From a virus (lineage: Duplodnaviria; Caudoviricetes): a DNA stretch of 26,747 nt. Made by a program: the position numbers and the translations under genes. This document shows positions 3,573-20,249 of this stretch, one piece after another (positions within the stretch are counted from its first letter, which is position 1; every line of letters starts with the position of its first letter). The stretch spans positions 1 to 26,747 of IMG/VR virus record IMGVR_UViG_3300030376_004613, one strand, 5' to 3'. The notes beneath the pieces are model-generated. The model did not search any database and was not told the origin of the DNA. It worked only from the letters and a program-made list of their open reading frames with translations.

Positions 3573-4079
3573 ATGTCAGTACCAAACGTAAGCGGATTAG
3601 CTAGGCAATATATCGCTGGATTCGAAGGCGATGATTTTGTACCAAAAACTCTTGAGCAGGCAGGCTTATTAAGTGATGCAGGGAAGACTTTAATGGCTTC
3701 TATCCCCGCTACTAATTTGGCTGCTGAAGTTGCAGCGATGAAAGGTGGTATGACTTTGGAACAGCAAAAAGGTATCAACGAAACTGCAATCGCTATACAA
3801 GAAATGAAAGATGAACAGACAAGAAAAAGAATGATCCTTGATCAGTTAGGTGGAACGAATATGGCTGGCACGGCATTATCAGCGTTCCTAGGAGGTGGCG
3901 GAGGTGGCTTCGATCTAGGTTCTATGTTGGGTAATATTGGAGATACGTCTAGCCCATCACAGACCAGTGCTATATCTTCAGACGTAGATTCAGTGCTTGC
4001 ACAGGTTGATGAATTACCGGTTGAAGGAAAGGCTAAACTATTAAAGAGATATAACGAGCTGTTGCAAAAGAACAAATGA
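3573..4079 (+). CDS. Hypothetical protein
   Basis: 168-aa ORF with a poly-Gly stretch, in the same operon. Confidence 0.6.
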   Translation: MSVPNVSGLARQYIAGFEGDDFVPKTLEQAGLLSDAGKTLMASIPATNLAAEVAAMKGGMTLEQQKGINETAIAIQEMKDEQTRKRMILDQLGGTNMAGTALSAFLGGGGGGFDLGSMLGNIGDTSSPSQTSAISSDVDSVLAQVDELPVEGKAKLLKRYNELLQKNK

Positions 4080-7886: not shown

Positions 7887-10106
7887 ATGAGCGCACAATC
7901 CAACCAAAAATTTCGCCAGATTTTAGAAGCTGCTCGTAAGCGAGACGGCATGAGTGGCACTGACACGATGATTGTCAATAGCCACTTAGCTCAGATGAAG
8001 TTATTCATGCTTCGTCAGGGGCTTGAATTTTTTCCTTCGCAAGACACTTTCGGTTTCCGCAAGATGTTCCTTGCTCAGTTAGTCGAAGAGAATGAAATTG
8101 ACACACGCCTAGAAGGAATCGTTGATGATTTCTTATTAGATGGAAAAGGATTATTTTATTTCAGACCTGTAGACGATTCATACAGGATCATGTGGTTCAG
8201 CAAGGATAATTACCGTGCTTACTATGATTCCTCTTCTCAACTAGAAGAGATCGAACTAATTTATAGCTTTTCCGTTAGGTCAGGGCTTGGAGCACTAGCA
8301 ACACCTAATTCGGAGAACGGTAGTGAACGATGGGTCAAGCTTCAAATTAGGCGAGATGAGATCAAAGAATCAATTACCACTGAGAGACCATCTTTTGAGC
8401 ATGGAGTAGGGAATAACTTCTCTTGGAATCCAAACGCAACAAGAACACTTACAAACAGCCTTGGCTTTATTCCAGCAGTTGAATCGTTTAATACGATGCG
8501 TTCAACTGGAATGGATTCAACGGGTGATTTTGATTGGTTGGCAGAACAGATTGTTCTCCATGATGATTTAGTCAAAAACATACGTACAAATATTCACTTC
8601 TTTGGTAATCCAACTCTTGTTTCCAGTAGACCAAAGCATGATCTAGTGGAGTCAGGTAGTGAAGATCAGTTAAGACCAACAATTAGTTCACAAGCAGGTT
8701 TCTACGCATCGAATAGACCTTCAACCCGTTTAAGCGAACCAACAGGAATGGGTACTTCAGGAATGAAGGTTCCAAGAGTAATTGCGAATGTTGAGCCAAC
8801 TGACCGTGCTGTTTACTTAACGCCAGATGCTGTCTCAGGTGACCAGAACTTATATGCAAGGCAATACCGCGAGGAATTAAGAACTGCTCTAGGTGGAGTG
8901 GATGAATTAGGAATTAGTTCAGGTGCTACTGCTTATGAAATTAAATCTCTTTATGGTCGTGCTGCTACTACTGCAACACGTAGATGTAAGGGCTTGTTGA
9001 CTTACGGTTTATGTAAGTTATTTGGGCTGATTATTTATCACGAAGAAAAGATCTTCCGTGATTCATTTGCAGAAGCAATAGGCTTGCCTAGACCTATACC
9101 TCCTATCAGAGAGGAGATACAGGATGATGCTGCATTTAATCAGTTGATGGCTGAGTATGATGGAGCTAATAGAGAGTTTGAGCAGACTCTTGAAAATACT
9201 ATTCGAGAAGCTGTTCAAAACACTCAACTACCTCCCGGTGTCGTTGGTTTAATACCTGATGGCAACAGAAAAGTAGAATGGAGGTGGAAAGGTCCAGTCT
9301 TCGAAGATGGGACTGAAGATATACTGAATTCAAGTATTGTTGTTCGCAACTTACAAGAACTCGGTGTAAATAGCATTGAGGCGCTGAGATATCTCTTCCC
9401 TGATAAGACAGACGAAGAGAGGAGCGCAATGTTGAGTGGCTATCCATTCAGGATGGCTCAGGCAACACAACAAAGTATTGGTCAATTCATGTCGTTAATA
9501 AATGACATGCGACAAACACCACATCCGCAAGCTCCTGATTTACCACTGCTTGCTGATCCGAAGCTCGACTTGACACCTTACGTATATCGAGCACTTGATT
9601 TCCTTAAGCGAGAATTAACTTATGCAGGCGCATACAACGACGACACAGGATCAGGCGATCCAACAACCCTCGATTCCATCGAGCGCACCCGTGCCGAGCG
9701 CGGCTACCCAGCAAGCTCCGGTCCAGAACGCCCAACCTTCGTACCAGATACCTTCGGCTCCACAGGTGGAGACACAGCCACAGGTAGCGGCACCGCAGGT
9801 AGCGGACCAGAATCCATGGCAGGAGGCGTACAACAGGCTAACCGACAGTCTGAGCGCGACGCAGAACTCCCAACCGCAGGCAGCTTACTCAACTCCGACC
9901 CCACAGGCAGCGGAGCCAACCAGCTATCCCTCTCAGGCACCGACTTACCAAGCAGCACCGTCCGCTTCGGGGATGCAGACTTATCTGCCCCAAGCAACGC
10001 AGGCGTACTCCCAGACACCACAGGTACAGGAGCAGACCTTACAGCAGCAGCAGAGCGTACAAAGTCAAGACGGGTATCTAGGAGCAGTAAGCGACGAAAG
10101 TCTTGA
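7887..10106 (+). CDS. Portal protein with a long low-complexity C-terminal extension
   Basis: 739 aa directly after terL; ~580-aa ordered region, with the last ~160 aa encoded in an alternative frame of the next gene. Confidence 0.75.
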   Translation: MSAQSNQKFRQILEAARKRDGMSGTDTMIVNSHLAQMKLFMLRQGLEFFPSQDTFGFRKMFLAQLVEENEIDTRLEGIVDDFLLDGKGLFYFRPVDDSYRIMWFSKDNYRAYYDSSSQLEEIELIYSFSVRSGLGALATPNSENGSERWVKLQIRRDEIKESITTERPSFEHGVGNNFSWNPNATRTLTNSLGFIPAVESFNTMRSTGMDSTGDFDWLAEQIVLHDDLVKNIRTNIHFFGNPTLVSSRPKHDLVESGSEDQLRPTISSQAGFYASNRPSTRLSEPTGMGTSGMKVPRVIANVEPTDRAVYLTPDAVSGDQNLYARQYREELRTALGGVDELGISSGATAYEIKSLYGRAATTATRRCKGLLTYGLCKLFGLIIYHEEKIFRDSFAEAIGLPRPIPPIREEIQDDAAFNQLMAEYDGANREFEQTLENTIREAVQNTQLPPGVVGLIPDGNRKVEWRWKGPVFEDGTEDILNSSIVVRNLQELGVNSIEALRYLFPDKTDEERSAMLSGYPFRMAQATQQSIGQFMSLINDMRQTPHPQAPDLPLLADPKLDLTPYVYRALDFLKRELTYAGAYNDDTGSGDPTTLDSIERTRAERGYPASSGPERPTFVPDTFGSTGGDTATGSGTAGSGPESMAGGVQQANRQSERDAELPTAGSLLNSDPTGSGANQLSLSGTDLPSSTVRFGDADLSAPSNAGVLPDTTGTGADLTAAAERTKSRRVSRSSKRRKS

Positions 10107-10689
10107 AGTAATACAGCACTTCGGAGCAGAAGCACCAGCATTGCTTAACCGCTATGCATGCGTAGTCGAGGATGCACTTATAAATCAGGCACAAGAGACA
10201 GCTAAGTCTTTACAGCAAGTTGAAAAGCTTACTCAGTCTGTTGAAGGTGCTAAAAAGGTAGTGAAGGCAGCGGCTGAAGACAATGCTGCTTATCATGTGA
10301 TGCTTACCAACCCTGACATGTTGTCAGAGTATGTGAATGAGTTTTTCGGACCTCAAGGACCACATCCAGTAGAGTTACCACAAGATCGTCTAGCTGCTGA
10401 AGTTGCAGCGAACGAAGCACGCACACAGCAAGCTCAGTTCACACCAACTCCACAGGCAGCTCCACAGGCATCTCAGGAAGCTCCAAAGCAGGCAGCGCCA
10501 ACAAAGCAACCAGCTTTCCAGCGCCCTCAAATGGATATGCCAGCCCCTGGAACCCAAGCTGCAAGGCAAGGTGATTTCTGGGCAGCATTCTCTAACTTGA
10601 GCGATAAGAATCCAGCAGCGGCATGGCAAGCACTTAGCCAAGCAACTCCTGATCAGTTACGCAGCAAGGTATTGGTATCCGAAGCTTAA
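9622..10689 (+). CDS. Probable capsid scaffolding protein
   Basis: 355 aa; Q/P/A-rich N-terminus, central coiled-coil-like region, short C-terminal helical domain; follows the portal. Confidence 0.6.
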   Translation: MQAHTTTTQDQAIQQPSIPSSAPVPSAATQQAPVQNAQPSYQIPSAPQVETQPQVAAPQVADQNPWQEAYNRLTDSLSATQNSQPQAAYSTPTPQAAEPTSYPSQAPTYQAAPSASGMQTYLPQATQAYSQTPQVQEQTLQQQQSVQSQDGYLGAVSDESLEVIQHFGAEAPALLNRYACVVEDALINQAQETAKSLQQVEKLTQSVEGAKKVVKAAAEDNAAYHVMLTNPDMLSEYVNEFFGPQGPHPVELPQDRLAAEVAANEARTQQAQFTPTPQAAPQASQEAPKQAAPTKQPAFQRPQMDMPAPGTQAARQGDFWAAFSNLSDKNPAAAWQALSQATPDQLRSKVLVSEA

Positions 10690-12268: not shown

Positions 12269-13354
12269 ATGACTACATCATCCTCTCTTAGAGGTGGTAG
12301 CTTACTGAACGGATGGGACGAGCTTACTAGTTGGGTTACTTCAACTAATAATCGCATCTACGTTGGCTGGTTCGGGGTATTAATGATCCCTTGCCTGCTT
12401 GCTGCTGCAACTTGTTTCATAATCGCTTTCATAGCTGCACCTCCCGTTGATATCGACGGAATTCGTGAACCAGTAGCTGGTTCATTTCTATATGGCAACA
12501 ACATTATTTCTGGTGCTGTTGTACCTAGTAGTAACGCAATTGGGTTACATTTCTACCCCATATGGGAAGCGGCGACGCTAGACGAATGGTTATATAACGG
12601 TGGTCCTTACCAGCTCGTTGTTTTCCATTTTTTAATTGGAATATCTGCATATATGGGAAGACAGTGGGAACTGTCATACCGTTTAGGAATGCGTCCTTGG
12701 ATCTGTGTTGCTTATTCAGCACCAGTATCTGCTGCATTCGCTGTATTCCTTGTATACCCTTTTGGTCAGGGTTCTTTCTCTGACGGAATGCCTTTAGGAA
12801 TATCAGGAACATTTAACTTTATGTTCGTATTCCAGGCTGAACACAACATTTTGATGCACCCCTTCCATATGGCTGGAGTAGCAGGAATGTTTGGAGGAGC
12901 TTTATTCTCCGCAATGCATGGCTCACTTGTGACTTCTTCTTTGATTAGAGAGACTACTGGTCTTACTTCTCAAAACTATGGTTATAAGTTTGGTCAAGAA
13001 GAAGAGACCTATAACATCGTGGCCGCTCATGGCTACTTCGGAAGATTAATCTTCCAATATGCGTCATTTAATAACTCAAGAAGTCTTCACTTTTTCCTTG
13101 CTAGCTGGCCTGTCATCTGTATATGGCTAACAAGTATGGGGATTTGTACTATGGCTTTCAACTTAAATGGTTTCAACTTTAATCAGTCTGTCGTAGACTA
13201 TAAAGGAAAAGTCATTCCTACTTGGGGAGACGTACTTAATCGCGCCAACCTCGGAATGGAAGTTATGCACGAGCGCAATGCTCATAACTTCCCGCTAGAC
13301 CTCGCTTCTACAGCATCTAGTGAAGTAGCCTTACTTGCACCTGCAATCGGCTAA
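12269..13354 (+). CDS. psbA: Photosystem II D1 protein (phage auxiliary metabolic gene)
   Basis: Full 361-aa D1: [49 protein letters not shown]; uninterrupted. Confidence 0.99.
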
Positions 13355-16975: not shown

Positions 16976-17103
16976 TCAGGAGCCCTGCACGATAGCTAAA
17001 CGCACAGGGTGCAGATTAAAGCTCTAAGAAACTACAAAAATTAGAACTCCTGACATGGACCAAACCCCTGACGTAGTTCTGCTTCGGGGCAAGTTTAATC
17101 TAC
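16976..17103 (-). ncRNA. Candidate structured RNA of unknown family
   Basis: Six complementary segment pairs tile the intergenic region; G-U pairs work only on the minus strand (see findings). Confidence 0.55.
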
Positions 17104-17690
17104 CTGAATTTTGAGATCTGTGGCCTTAGAGTTTTCTTCATCGTGTAGTGCATCATTGGTTTTAAGAGTCTGAATAATTCTTCTAATGAATCTTTCTTGA
17201 AGCTCAACTGAATGATGCTGACATTATTGCGATGAATCTTTGCAGGAATACTTAGATCGTTAAACCAAGATTCCAGCGCTAAATAATCATTCTCTGAATA
17301 GCGACCACGAATAGAACCACGCTTACCTGAGATACGACCTTGATCAATCCATAAAGCAGCAGCTCCTTTTAATCCAGCAATATTGAGAACCTCTCTCGAA
17401 ATACGTTTACTGTCTTTTGGGTACATCAGTTCATAGACCCTCCAGAGCAGATCACCATTAAAACGTATGCGCTCTAAATCGTAGAAGCCATCTGTAGGAA
17501 CCCGATCAGCTAGGTAATCAACAGCTCCATCATGGGTTTGCTTAAGTGTCCTTAGTTGATGGGTGAGATAAGTACGATCAACTTCTGATCTGACAATTTC
17601 CAGCCATGGCCTCTGATTCTTCCCCTTGAGGCTGATGCTCCCCTTTCCTAAGTTGTAACTCAGTGCGTGCGCTACGAATTGAACTGACAT
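17100..17690 (-). CDS. Degenerate LAGLIDADG-family (LAGLIDADG_2-like) protein, probably nuclease-dead
   Basis: Motif 1 ALSYNLGKGSI, motif 2 AAALWIDQG, and linker YELMYP...KRISREVLN parallel to the neighbouring gene; AGGAG RBS. Confidence 0.65.
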   Translation of the reverse strand: MSVQFVAHALSYNLGKGSISLKGKNQRPWLEIVRSEVDRTYLTHQLRTLKQTHDGAVDYLADRVPTDGFYDLERIRFNGDLLWRVYELMYPKDSKRISREVLNIAGLKGAAALWIDQGRISGKRGSIRGRYSENDYLALESWFNDLSIPAKIHRNNVSIIQLSFKKDSLEELFRLLKPMMHYTMKKTLRPQISKFR

Positions 17691-18336
17691 CCCATAACTC
17701 CTGTTTAAATAAATGCAAACGACTTTTTGGTGCGTAAGGTATTAATTGCTCTTGAAGCTTCTTGGTTTGTTCAGCATCGAAGATCAATCTTGGTCTGATA
17801 TGGTCTTCATCGAGCTTTCCATTAGCACCAACTAACATTTGTAGCCATTGAGCAATTAGAAGAGCTTCTTCTTCTGTAGTTCCGACTCTGACCAGAGAAG
17901 ATGAACCGTTTTTATTGATTTTCGCTCCTTCTGCCCATAACCATGCAGCAGCTTGAGCACCTAACAAATCAAGTGCTATTTGCGTGATTTGCCTTTCACC
18001 GACTGGGTAGAGAAGATTGAAGATAGGACGTAATTTATTGGTTGAGACTCTAAATCGCAGAATCGAAGTCCTACTACCGTTTAATCGAGGCTTTGTTTTA
18101 TAGGGAACAATTTTGGCCCTAGTGAAAATAAATTGCTTAAATTCTTCAACTTTTTCTTCTAGAAATGCGTTCTCAGATAACCCAGCAGTGAGTGTTAGTT
18201 GAACATATCCCCCACTAGGAGTGCGATATGGGACAAGACTACCATCTGCTATCAATAATCCGAGCAGTCCACGAACGTCTGTGGCCTCCAAAAGTTTTAC
18301 CCTATGAGATGTACTTATGATATAGACAACACACAA
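17578..18336 (-). CDS. Free-standing LAGLIDADG homing endonuclease (LAGLIDADG_2-like)
   Basis: Motif 1 LLGLLIADGS, linker FNLLYP..ERQIT...LDLL, motif 2 AAAWLWAEG. The true start may be TTG at 18291. Confidence 0.8.
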   Translation of the reverse strand: MCVVYIISTSHRVKLLEATDVRGLLGLLIADGSLVPYRTPSGGYVQLTLTAGLSENAFLEEKVEEFKQFIFTRAKIVPYKTKPRLNGSRTSILRFRVSTNKLRPIFNLLYPVGERQITQIALDLLGAQAAAWLWAEGAKINKNGSSSLVRVGTTEEEALLIAQWLQMLVGANGKLDEDHIRPRLIFDAEQTKKLQEQLIPYAPKSRLHLFKQELWDVSSIRSARTELQLRKGEHQPQGEESEAMAGNCQIRS

Positions 18337-18381
18337 TAGGTGTGTATTTGTTCCCTATAAGTTTCGGAGTTATAAATCCCA

Positions 18382-20249
18382 ATGTGGATTGATAATGATT
18401 CAGTCGTAAGACTCTAGGATCATTTAAAACCGGATGAATTGCTGGAAACCTAAGTCGCGAGATAAGGCAATCAGCAGCCAAGCCAGAGATACATCTCTGG
18501 AAGGTTCACAGACTACCTGAGAGATACAGTTCTCTTAATTACAGGCACGAGCGTCCGGCACTGTAAAAAGTGATGATATAGTCGGTGCCCTATGAAAGTA
18601 GGGGTATTCACGTTCCAAAACTGTTAGGTGCAGAGCTTTATAGACCTCATCCCGGTTATATCATCGAGATGGCTGTAGAGCCTGTGGTTGTTCACGACTT
18701 CGATGGAGTCCATACAACGTAAGTTGTTTGAAAAATTGGGTGAATTGCTGGAAGACCGGATCTGAAAAGAAGGTTAATCAGCAGCCAAGCCAGACGACAA
18801 TCTGGAAGGTTCAGAGACTAGACGACGAGAGGAAACTCGGTAATTCGTCCACGAGCGCCCAACCCCTGATCAAGGGTGAAGATATAGTCCAATCACAAGA
18901 GTCCTTAATCTTGTGGGTGAGGATAAAGAGCCACACCATTAATACTTGTTCGAAACAACCCGGTCAAACTGTTCAATTAGACAGATATCGCTTCTGGGGC
19001 AATCCTGGTAACAAGGATTCCAGAGAGCGTACTGCTGATCAAACACTTGGCACAGCATCTAGCAGAAATATTGTTAAGGACAAAGTTCTCGTCAACCTAA
19101 AAGAGTACACCGGTCCTGCTGATCCAGCAGCTCCAACTACTCCTTCAACATTCAAGGTTGCACGTGAGACTCTCTTAACAGCACAGCGTCTTTTATTAGA
19201 CACTGGTAATCTCAACGTTTTTCATCAGAGCATAGGTAGTCTTACCCTTCTAGATGACTACAGACGTTGGAGAGATAGAGTATTTGCTGACGAACTATTT
19301 AAGGCAGAAGCTAACGGACTTGCATCTTCAAGTGTCGGTGGTTACTACTTCCCTGGTGGAGCTGCAAAAGCAGCAGGTAACCCTGTTTACACATACGGTG
19401 CAGGCGTTTCAGCTAAGTTCGACGTAAAGACTGACCTGCTTCAGGTCGTCAAGGATATGCGTAAGAGAAACGTACCTACGTTCTCTGATGGCTACTACAG
19501 ATGTATTGCTGATCCAACAGCAATGATGCATCTTCGCCAGAACGACGCATTCAGAGAGATCGCAAGGTATGCCGGTAATGGCATGGTTAACCCCATGAAC
19601 CCATCCGAGGCTCCTAATGCGAACTTCTTCCAAGGTATGGGTCCAGCTTATGGACAAGCAGGATTCGTAGCTGGACAGCCAGTAATGCCTAAACAAACAG
19701 TGGGCCAACAAGCTGCGTGAGCCTTGTTGCAAATAGGGTGAATTCAAGGAACCCCTTCTAAAGCGGGGAATCTTGAGCCAAGCCAGACGACAATCTGGAA
19801 GGTGCAACGACTAGAGATCGACAGGAAACTGAGTAACATCTCCAAGAGTGCCCTACAACTTAATTACTAAGTTGATGACATAGTCTGACCAACATCGATG
19901 ATAAAGATGTTGAACCGAAAGATAAAGAGCTTTCGGGATAACAAAAGTGACTGGTTTCTTATTTGAAGGCGTAAGATGGTTCGAATCAACCAACTTGCCT
20001 GAGAAGACTATCAATGCAAATATTGCAGTTGACACAGCAAATGCTGGTGCAGCTAACTACACAATTGCTCCAATGTTGTTCTTCGGACCACAAGCAGTTG
20101 GCGTAGGTATTGGTGGTAACAATGCTCAGATTCTTCTTAATAACAATGATGACTTCTCAAGATTCATCATTATGATTTGGAGTCTCTTTGCTGGTTTTGA
20201 AATTCTTAATAAGGACTTCATTACCGTTGCTTACTCATTCGTATATTGA
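18382..20249 (+). CDS. Major capsid protein, spliced from 4 exons (18382-18400, 18613-18700, 18949-19690, 19950-20249; 382 aa)
   Basis: Joined exons give 1149 nt of open frame: MWIDNDF-PKLLGAELYRPHPGYIIEMAVEPVVVHDF-SKQPGQTVQLDRYRFW...GQPVMP-TGFLFEGVRWFES...AYSFVY. GGAG upstream. Size, position and sequence character indicate a capsid protein. Confidence 0.88.
18401..18612 (+). ncRNA. Group I intron 1 in capsid gene (212 nt, ORF-less)
   Basis: Exon ends in U and intron ends in G; P1 ATGATT/C pairs with GGATCAT with U-G at the splice site; P3 CCGGATG/CGTCCGG; P AATTGCTGGAA, Q AATCAGCAGCC, R GTTCACAGACTA, S GATATAGTC. Confidence 0.93.
18701..18948 (+). ncRNA. Group I intron 2 in capsid gene (248 nt, ORF-less)
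   Basis: P1 GACTT/C-GAT-GGAGTC with U-G; P2 ACAAC-GTAA-GTTGT; P3 TTGGGTG/CGCCCAA; P AATTGCTGGAA, Q AATCAGCAGCC, R GTTCAGAGACTA, S AAGATATAGTCC; terminal G 18948. Confidence 0.93.
19691..19949 (+). ncRNA. Group I intron 3 in capsid gene (259 nt, ORF-less)
   Basis: P1 GCCT/A pairs with TGGGC with U-G; P10 CAGT pairs with 3' exon ACTG; P3 TAGGGTG/TGCCCTA; P4 TTCAAGG/TCTTGAG; R GTGCAACGACTA, S GACATAGTC; terminal G 19949. Confidence 0.93.

Follow-up and report, generated by a model that had tools for sequence, protein, structure and literature searches.

Three ORF-less group I introns split the major capsid gene of an S-EIV1-like cyanophage

Group I introns have been described in several phage genes. 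The orf142 gene of Staphylococcus phage Twort was originally reported by Landthaler and Shub (1999) and is described here through papers citing that report, according to which it is interrupted by group I introns at three places and exons may be skipped (PMC10136302, PMC11878797, PMC3073962) and encodes the tail tube (PMC11878797). In mycobacteriophage LittleE, capsid gene 13 carries a group I-type intron for which splicing was shown by RT-PCR (Pope et al. 2013, PMC3706429), and the same paper cites a capsid intron in lactococcal phage Tuc2009. The major capsid protein gene of the crAss-like Zeta group is found in five fragments (Yutin et al. 2021, PMC7886860). Cyanophage S-PM2 has a group I intron, devoid of an ORF, in psbA and a free-standing F-CphI (PMC5931967, PMC2988022).

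Capsid-gene introns are already known from other phages, and the locus described here, where a cyanophage related to S-EIV1 has its major capsid gene split by three ORF-less group I introns, demonstrates neither a new kind of element nor a regulatory gate. An earlier note on this DNA had implied that such introns are rare, which finds no support, since both capsid-gene introns and three introns in one virion gene had already been published. The introns of Twort orf142 are not known to contain ORFs. In Twort, as here, one late virion gene is cut by three group I introns, although there it is the tail tube gene and here it is a cyanophage major capsid gene. The skipped exon in Twort is 23 nt, in contrast to internal exons of 88 and 742 nt here, and the P7 extension described for Twort is P7.1/P7.2, whereas here it is nested. 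A further difference is that presence and absence have been mapped across many relatives for the present gene. LittleE likewise has its group I-type intron in the gene for the major capsid protein, with an antisense LAGLIDADG ORF, as do distant site-849 introns in relatives of the virus studied here, but it has one ORF-bearing intron rather than three ORF-less ones. The crAss-like Zeta gene is similar in having several group I introns in the major capsid gene, with intron-type domains reported in three of the four inserts, whereas all introns in the close clade of the present virus are ORF-less. The likeness to S-PM2 is in an ORF-less cyanophage intron near a free-standing nuclease gene and in the stops that a retained intron brings. 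The S-PM2 psbA intron interrupts the target of the nuclease, whereas the LAGLIDADG pair beside the present gene is found with or without introns, which occupy many sites. No report of capsid introns in S-EIV1-like cyanophages was found in a literature search that covered mostly openly accessible papers.

The window, which is the whole stretch of DNA that was analysed, is 26,747 nucleotides (26.7 kb) long. A cmscan search of the window against Rfam matched RF00028 three times and matched nothing else. The matches are at 18381-18604 (86.6 bits), 18683-18915 (74.3 bits) and 19681-19912 (71.2 bits), against a gathering cut-off of 50 bits, with E-values from 4e-21 to 2e-16, and they bear out the proposal of the earlier note that three group I introns lie within the capsid stretch. 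All on the + strand, the gene consists of exon 1 (18382-18400; 19 nt from the ATG), intron 1 (18401-18612; 212 nt), exon 2 (18613-18700; 88 nt), intron 2 (18701-18948; 248 nt), exon 3 (18949-19690; 742 nt), intron 3 (19691-19949; 259 nt) and exon 4 (19950-20249; 300 nt to the stop). The introns come after nucleotides 19, 107 and 849 of the coding sequence, by which the sites are named below. Each is directly preceded by an exon U and has G as its last base. Exons 1 and 2 are collinear with intron-less relatives, and when the spliced protein is compared with intron-less capsid homologs it is collinear with them at 81-96% identity.

In-silico removal of the introns gives 1149 nt, encoding 382 aa and a stop, with no internal stops and with intron phases of 1, 2 and 0, just as the earlier note had claimed. 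Three further statements of the note are also correct: the ORF track has only two mis-started fragments (18728-19720 and 19947-20249), retention of an intron brings an early stop (starting at 18415, 18720 and 19718), and all three products in which internal exons are skipped are frameshifted. Three splicing events are required for the full capsid protein from this allele. No intron-encoded endonuclease ORF, as expected of a homing intron, is present in introns 1 to 3 (212-259 nt), where the longest stop-free frames are 42, 82 and 42 codons. An open frame of 74 codons that crosses from intron 2 to exon 3 is taken to be a chance mis-start.

The interrupted gene is the major capsid gene, as had been proposed, with matches to capsids both by profile and by fold. 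Exon 3 and exon 4 match phrog_1357, major head protein, with E-values of 4e-10 and 1e-9, and an intron-less relative that is 96% identical (L004) matches it at 1e-21. The capsid model of this relative, made from a 34-sequence alignment, has a pLDDT of 81; its best Foldseek matches are all phage capsids and the closest is the capsid of cyanophage P-SCSP1u (E 2e-13). A first structure prediction from 16 close homologs had a pLDDT of 33.8 and was discarded. Profile searches of solved structures gave no match with a shallow alignment and, with a deeper one, weak capsid matches only (best E 0.007).

Synechococcus phage S-EIV1 was the sole match among 50,697 phage records, at 72% over exon 3. The window also codes for terminase, psbA and lysozyme, and the RNA runs holding parts of the stretch are mostly marine. 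The psbA gene (12269-13354) is intact and intron-free and lies within the virion gene block. In S-EIV1 (L081, KJ410740.1) there is an intact, intron-less capsid ORF of 383 aa at 7893-9044, which in the annotation of KJ410740.1 appears as an antisense hypothetical CDS and a 3' fragment. Upstream of the window's capsid gene, there is a small hairpin in the 5' leader (18329-18345, + strand), which recurs in L007, L012 and L014 with its stem made of another sequence. A promoter scan gave 7 sites against 5.1 expected and is uninformative.

P3, P4, P6 and P7 could be placed in each of the introns. In intron 1, the internal guide sequence (IGS) is at 18418-18424, P3 at 18430-18436/18552-18558 and P7 at 18511-18515/18579-18583. 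The corresponding positions in intron 2 are 18706-18710, 18736-18742/18856-18862 and 18816-18820/18885-18889, and in intron 3 they are 19702-19705, 19734-19740/19849-19855 and 19809-19813/19881-19885. Intron 1 lacks a separate P2 and the P9.1 extension, both of which are present in introns 2 and 3. A set of 23 aligned ORF-less introns from 9 sites, with 37 named pairs, was used for covariation. Of its cells, 91.5% pair, and two-sided changes are seen in 24 of the 37 pairs, including all five of P7.1. P3 is 97.5% paired with two-sided changes, and the five pairs of P7 are invariant. The values for pairing, two-sided changes and covariation were matched by none of 500 shuffles, and the slid controls were all lower, although in the number of further pair types the introns were no better than the shuffles (332/500). 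P8 is only 58.7% paired because loop lengths misalign. Several single-hairpin folds are no better than shuffles, and the structure claim rests on the covariation.

The earlier note had described an IA-like topology, and an extra helix in two nested parts was indeed found between P7 and P3' in all three introns. A helical extension at this place marks subgroup IA, and nested P7.1/P7.1a is a mark of IA1. The three are group I introns whose P7 extension fits class IA. A purine-rich P9.1 loop (18921-18930 and 19921-19929) is conserved in introns 2 and 3 and in most relatives, and may form a tertiary contact.

P1 helices of 7, 5 and 4 bp in introns 1, 2 and 3 set a U-G pair at the predicted splice sites. 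This feature and the terminal G, both noticed earlier, are seen in all three introns, with the P1 control weak for intron 2. When exons of other sites were scored as controls, 1 of 54 did equally well for intron 1 and 1 of 52 for intron 3, but for intron 2 it was 12 of 50, so its P1 on its own is weak evidence. Pairing of P10 with the 3' exon amounts to 4 bp for intron 3, 2 for intron 1 and 1 contiguous for intron 2.

Seawater RNA contigs from 4 of 24 listed runs were compared with DNA loci, not with matched DNA runs. The X1 and X6 RNA contigs join 19690 to 19950 exactly, that is, exon 3 to exon 4, and the X6 contig has a single difference in the 173 nt 3' of the join. All 212 alleles without intron 3 have at least 2 differences in the first 20 nt after this site, and those scored over the 173 nt have at least 8 each. 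The window's 20 nt after intron 3 are found in two IMG/VR contigs, and the intron precedes them in both. For intron 2, an exon-2 RNA contig from X3 runs on into the first 13 nt of exon 3, which are matched exactly by none of 238 alleles without intron 2. The 23 nt before intron 2 occur in 29 contigs: all 10 with close-clade context bear the intron, and the remaining 19, which are distant, lack it. None of 343 DNA loci has the joined forms seen in RNA for introns 2 and 3. The intron 1 join is uninformative for splicing since the same join exists as DNA. RNA libraries can contain DNA; X1 also has intron pieces at low depth, and X3 and X9 have joins of the intron-less type. The joins at introns 2 and 3, being on haplotypes seen only in carriers, are indirect support for splicing, not proof. 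The X6 and X1 contigs also have, at 19192-19243, what appears to be the exon haplotype of site-397 carriers without the intron, as read from difference tables rather than whole contigs; this join is likewise in none of the 343 DNA loci.

Most relatives of this gene have no intron. Of 80 relatives found with exon 3, 67 align in a single match, at 81-96% identity, across whichever junctions they include, and 13 have introns. Among 180 distinct near-full genes, derived from 240 loci in three untargeted samples, an intron is absent from 154 and present in 26, the latter being a lower bound as each sample selects against introns inside its own query. All intron counts are lower bounds, because the first introns of L057 and L092, at a minimum, escaped the census.

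With targeted scans included, introns are found at positions 9, 12, 19, 51, 92, 107, 111, 144, 265, 321, 397, 414, 418, 432, 627, 696, 849, 872 and 1055. These are 19 positions in total, but the gene is best described as a hotspot of 18-19 sites since 9 and 12 may be one, the junction being ambiguous. The site counts exclude site 838 of L312, where the contig is truncated, L066, in which the intron is truncated and the frame broken, and L168, which is partial. The sites fall in conserved residues (0.934 versus 0.842, p 5e-5), and 8 of the 19 are within the first 150 nt (p 0.002). In L066 the site-19 intron (3734-3911) is truncated at its 3' end and the capsid frame is broken, which is either a defective allele or an assembly error.

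Presence and absence are polymorphic even among the closest genes. Of 34 alleles with an identity of 80% or more, among which carriers are enriched by the targeted scans and some genes are partial, 16 carry between 1 and 5 introns, ORF-less throughout. No intron is fixed in this clade, where sets range from 0 to 5. The site-19 intron is in 9 of the 34 alleles and the site-107 intron in 8, the window included in both cases. All four combinations of presence and absence are seen at 11 of 15 site pairs. Carriers have a flanking exon haplotype in common at sites 107 (p 0.0005), 849 (p 0.0045) and 397 (p 0.0005), the sharing is weak at site 144, and the test showed none at site 19 (p 0.25) and the opposite trend at site 696 (p about 1). 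The capsid tree omits 16 loci with stops after in-silico joining. Among close relatives, L221 has five ORF-less introns in the capsid gene and L153/L202 have four (sites 107, 144, 397, 696 and 849), and L335, a diverged phage that bears the LAGLIDADG pair, has ORF-less introns at sites 19 and 107. Since both are filled in L335, these two sites have been occupied over a long divergence.

Among the records searched, the exact triple of 19, 107 and 849 is found in the window only, while pairs are found elsewhere (19 and 107 in L229 and L335; 107 and 849 in L153 and L221) and the gene is mosaic among close alleles. This would fit a three-intron allele that is an assembly chimera of relatives with one or two of the introns, but natural alleles with 3, 4 and 5 introns are present on other contigs (L229, L210, L153 and L221), and a chimera is highly improbable.

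These observations are best explained, with a probability of about 0.72, by capsid introns that probably splice themselves out of the late message to restore the 382-aa protein, and that are likely near-neutral mobile passengers, moving between related phages together with short flanking stretches of exon. Two-step splicing initiated by guanosine, and homing with co-conversion of exon sequence, are established for group I introns (PMC3984707, PMC2988022). Splicing here would follow the established group I chemistry, with guanosine attacking in P1 at the U-G splice site and the exons then being ligated at the terminal G. During co-infection, homologous recombination or gene conversion would reshuffle the introns along with short pieces of exon, probably with occasional help in trans from a LAGLIDADG nuclease. 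Plain recombination accounts for shared flanks no less than homing does. The persistence of the introns presumably reflects their position in highly conserved codons of an essential gene, in which no loss other than an exact one would be tolerated.

The earlier note had instead suggested that the three splicing events could act as a timing or physiological gate on assembly; on this reading the introns are kept and their splicing slows or conditions capsid synthesis. Each retained intron does bring an early stop, intron 1 is only 19 nt past the start codon, and light-dependent splicing has been reported for the ORF-less S-PM2 psbA intron (PMC5931967). The 154 of 180 untargeted relatives without an intron, the lack of any fixed intron in the close clade and its sets of 0 to 5 speak against a gate. 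The frameshift upon skipping is not conserved either: the internal exons in multi-intron genes of the relatives are multiples of three in 14 of 29 cases, making in-frame skipping possible. For LittleE, efficient splicing of the capsid intron has been inferred (PMC3706429). The suggestion is not supported and a gate is very unlikely, although the splicing rate may be subject to some physiological effect, given the report on S-PM2. Because related viruses carry different mixes of introns or none, the introns are likely to be passengers rather than a timing switch.

In the intron tree, which omits four site-12 introns because of trimming and is used for same-site groupings only, intron 1 is a lineage separate from introns 2 and 3, and the deep nodes of the core tree are unsupported (30-75%). 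Intron 3 matches same-clade introns at site 696 (196/251) and site 397 (190/249) better than the distant introns at its own site (166-180), with which the weakly supported tree does not group it. Introns 2 and 3 share an 88-nt stretch (18776-18863 and 19769-19856) at 78%, with an identical run through P6, possibly the result of conversion between the two introns. Such likenesses, and the long identical core, could mean that new sites arose by transposition within the gene, through reverse splicing or ectopic conversion, the introns being a self-seeded swarm. This is improbable, given the unsupported deep nodes, a base composition that may itself group close-clade introns, and the separate lineage of intron 1. 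It also accounts for new sites and not for spread among alleles.

LAGLIDADG ORFs are found within introns of distant relatives at sites 107, 144, 265, 321, 418, 432, 849 and 872. None was found at site 19 in the relatives examined, and none at any site in the close clade. The ORF-bearing site-107 intron (L115) is of a different lineage from intron 2, and with intron 3 apart from the distant site-849 introns, the idea that the window's introns are remnants of homing cognates is unsupported. In distant-relative introns at sites 849, 872, 418 and 432, LAGLIDADG_3 ORFs lie between the P7 strands and on the strand opposite to the intron (L218:3687-4625, L222:2479-3336, L281:4051-4908, L053:4906-5946 and L255:3641-4567).

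Two overlapping ORFs lie head-to-head with the capsid gene, on the - strand. ORF A (17578-18336) is a free-standing member of the two-motif LAGLIDADG family (PF03161, 33.5 bits, above the cut-off), and ORF B (17100-17690) is free-standing, degenerate and LAGLIDADG-like (PF03161 E 0.027, below the cut-off). ORF A keeps the acidic residue in both motifs, with D at motif 1 in all 70 homologs and E/D at motif 2 in 69 of the 70, whereas ORF B has no acidic residue at the catalytic positions. From its kept catalytic residues, ORF A is predicted to be an adjacent free-standing nuclease of the kind involved in collaborative homing. Both ORFs are 20-31% identical to the intron-encoded LAGLIDADG ORFs of this capsid gene.

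The pair might serve the ORF-less introns in trans, with A cutting intron-less capsid alleles and B acting as a dead subunit or a maturase, and degenerate LAGLIDADG maturases acting in trans are known. The residues kept in A and lost in B and the similarity of both to intron-encoded ORFs are in keeping with such a role, as is the cluster of sites in the first 150 nt, which adjoins the pair. Introns are also commoner with the pair (14 of 59 relatives) than without it (11 of 98; Fisher p 0.045), and pair-bearing relatives have them at many more sites. The pair, however, is conserved within one clade and marks it, so the association is a single phylogenetic contrast. Nor do nuclease and intron travel together as in collaborative homing: 45 of the 59 pair-bearing relatives are intron-less, and introns are present in the 11 without the pair. 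An identical intron 1 is found in L209 beside an ORF A only 73% like that of the window, and is absent in L202 and L221 beside an ORF A that is 98-100% like it. With intron 1 uncoupled from the ORF A allele, the pair is not a dedicated partner. In addition, 18-19 different sites are too many for one nuclease, and the 5' cluster of sites is also present in phages without the pair. A role in trans for these introns is unlikely. It is doubtful, too, that one cyanophage clade has domesticated the pair beside its capsid gene as a mobiliser in trans or a splicing helper; if true, a swarm of ORF-less introns could thereby colonise the clade's most expressed gene, occupying numerous sites in combinatorial sets of as many as five.

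The gene is a good natural test bed. With its 18-19 sites, and with close alleles that carry from 0 to 5 ORF-less introns, it can be used to study the spread of introns that have no nuclease of their own and the burden they place on a gene with high expression. The capsid introns are also a compact (212-260 nt) natural set of ribozymes. In addition, intron-bearing capsid alleles of this widespread cyanophage lineage are mis-annotated, as gene callers split or mis-start them. Elsewhere in the window, two + strand ORFs, at 7887-10106 (a virion structural protein) and 9622-10689 (a protein rich in Q, P and A), are in different frames and have 485 nt in common.
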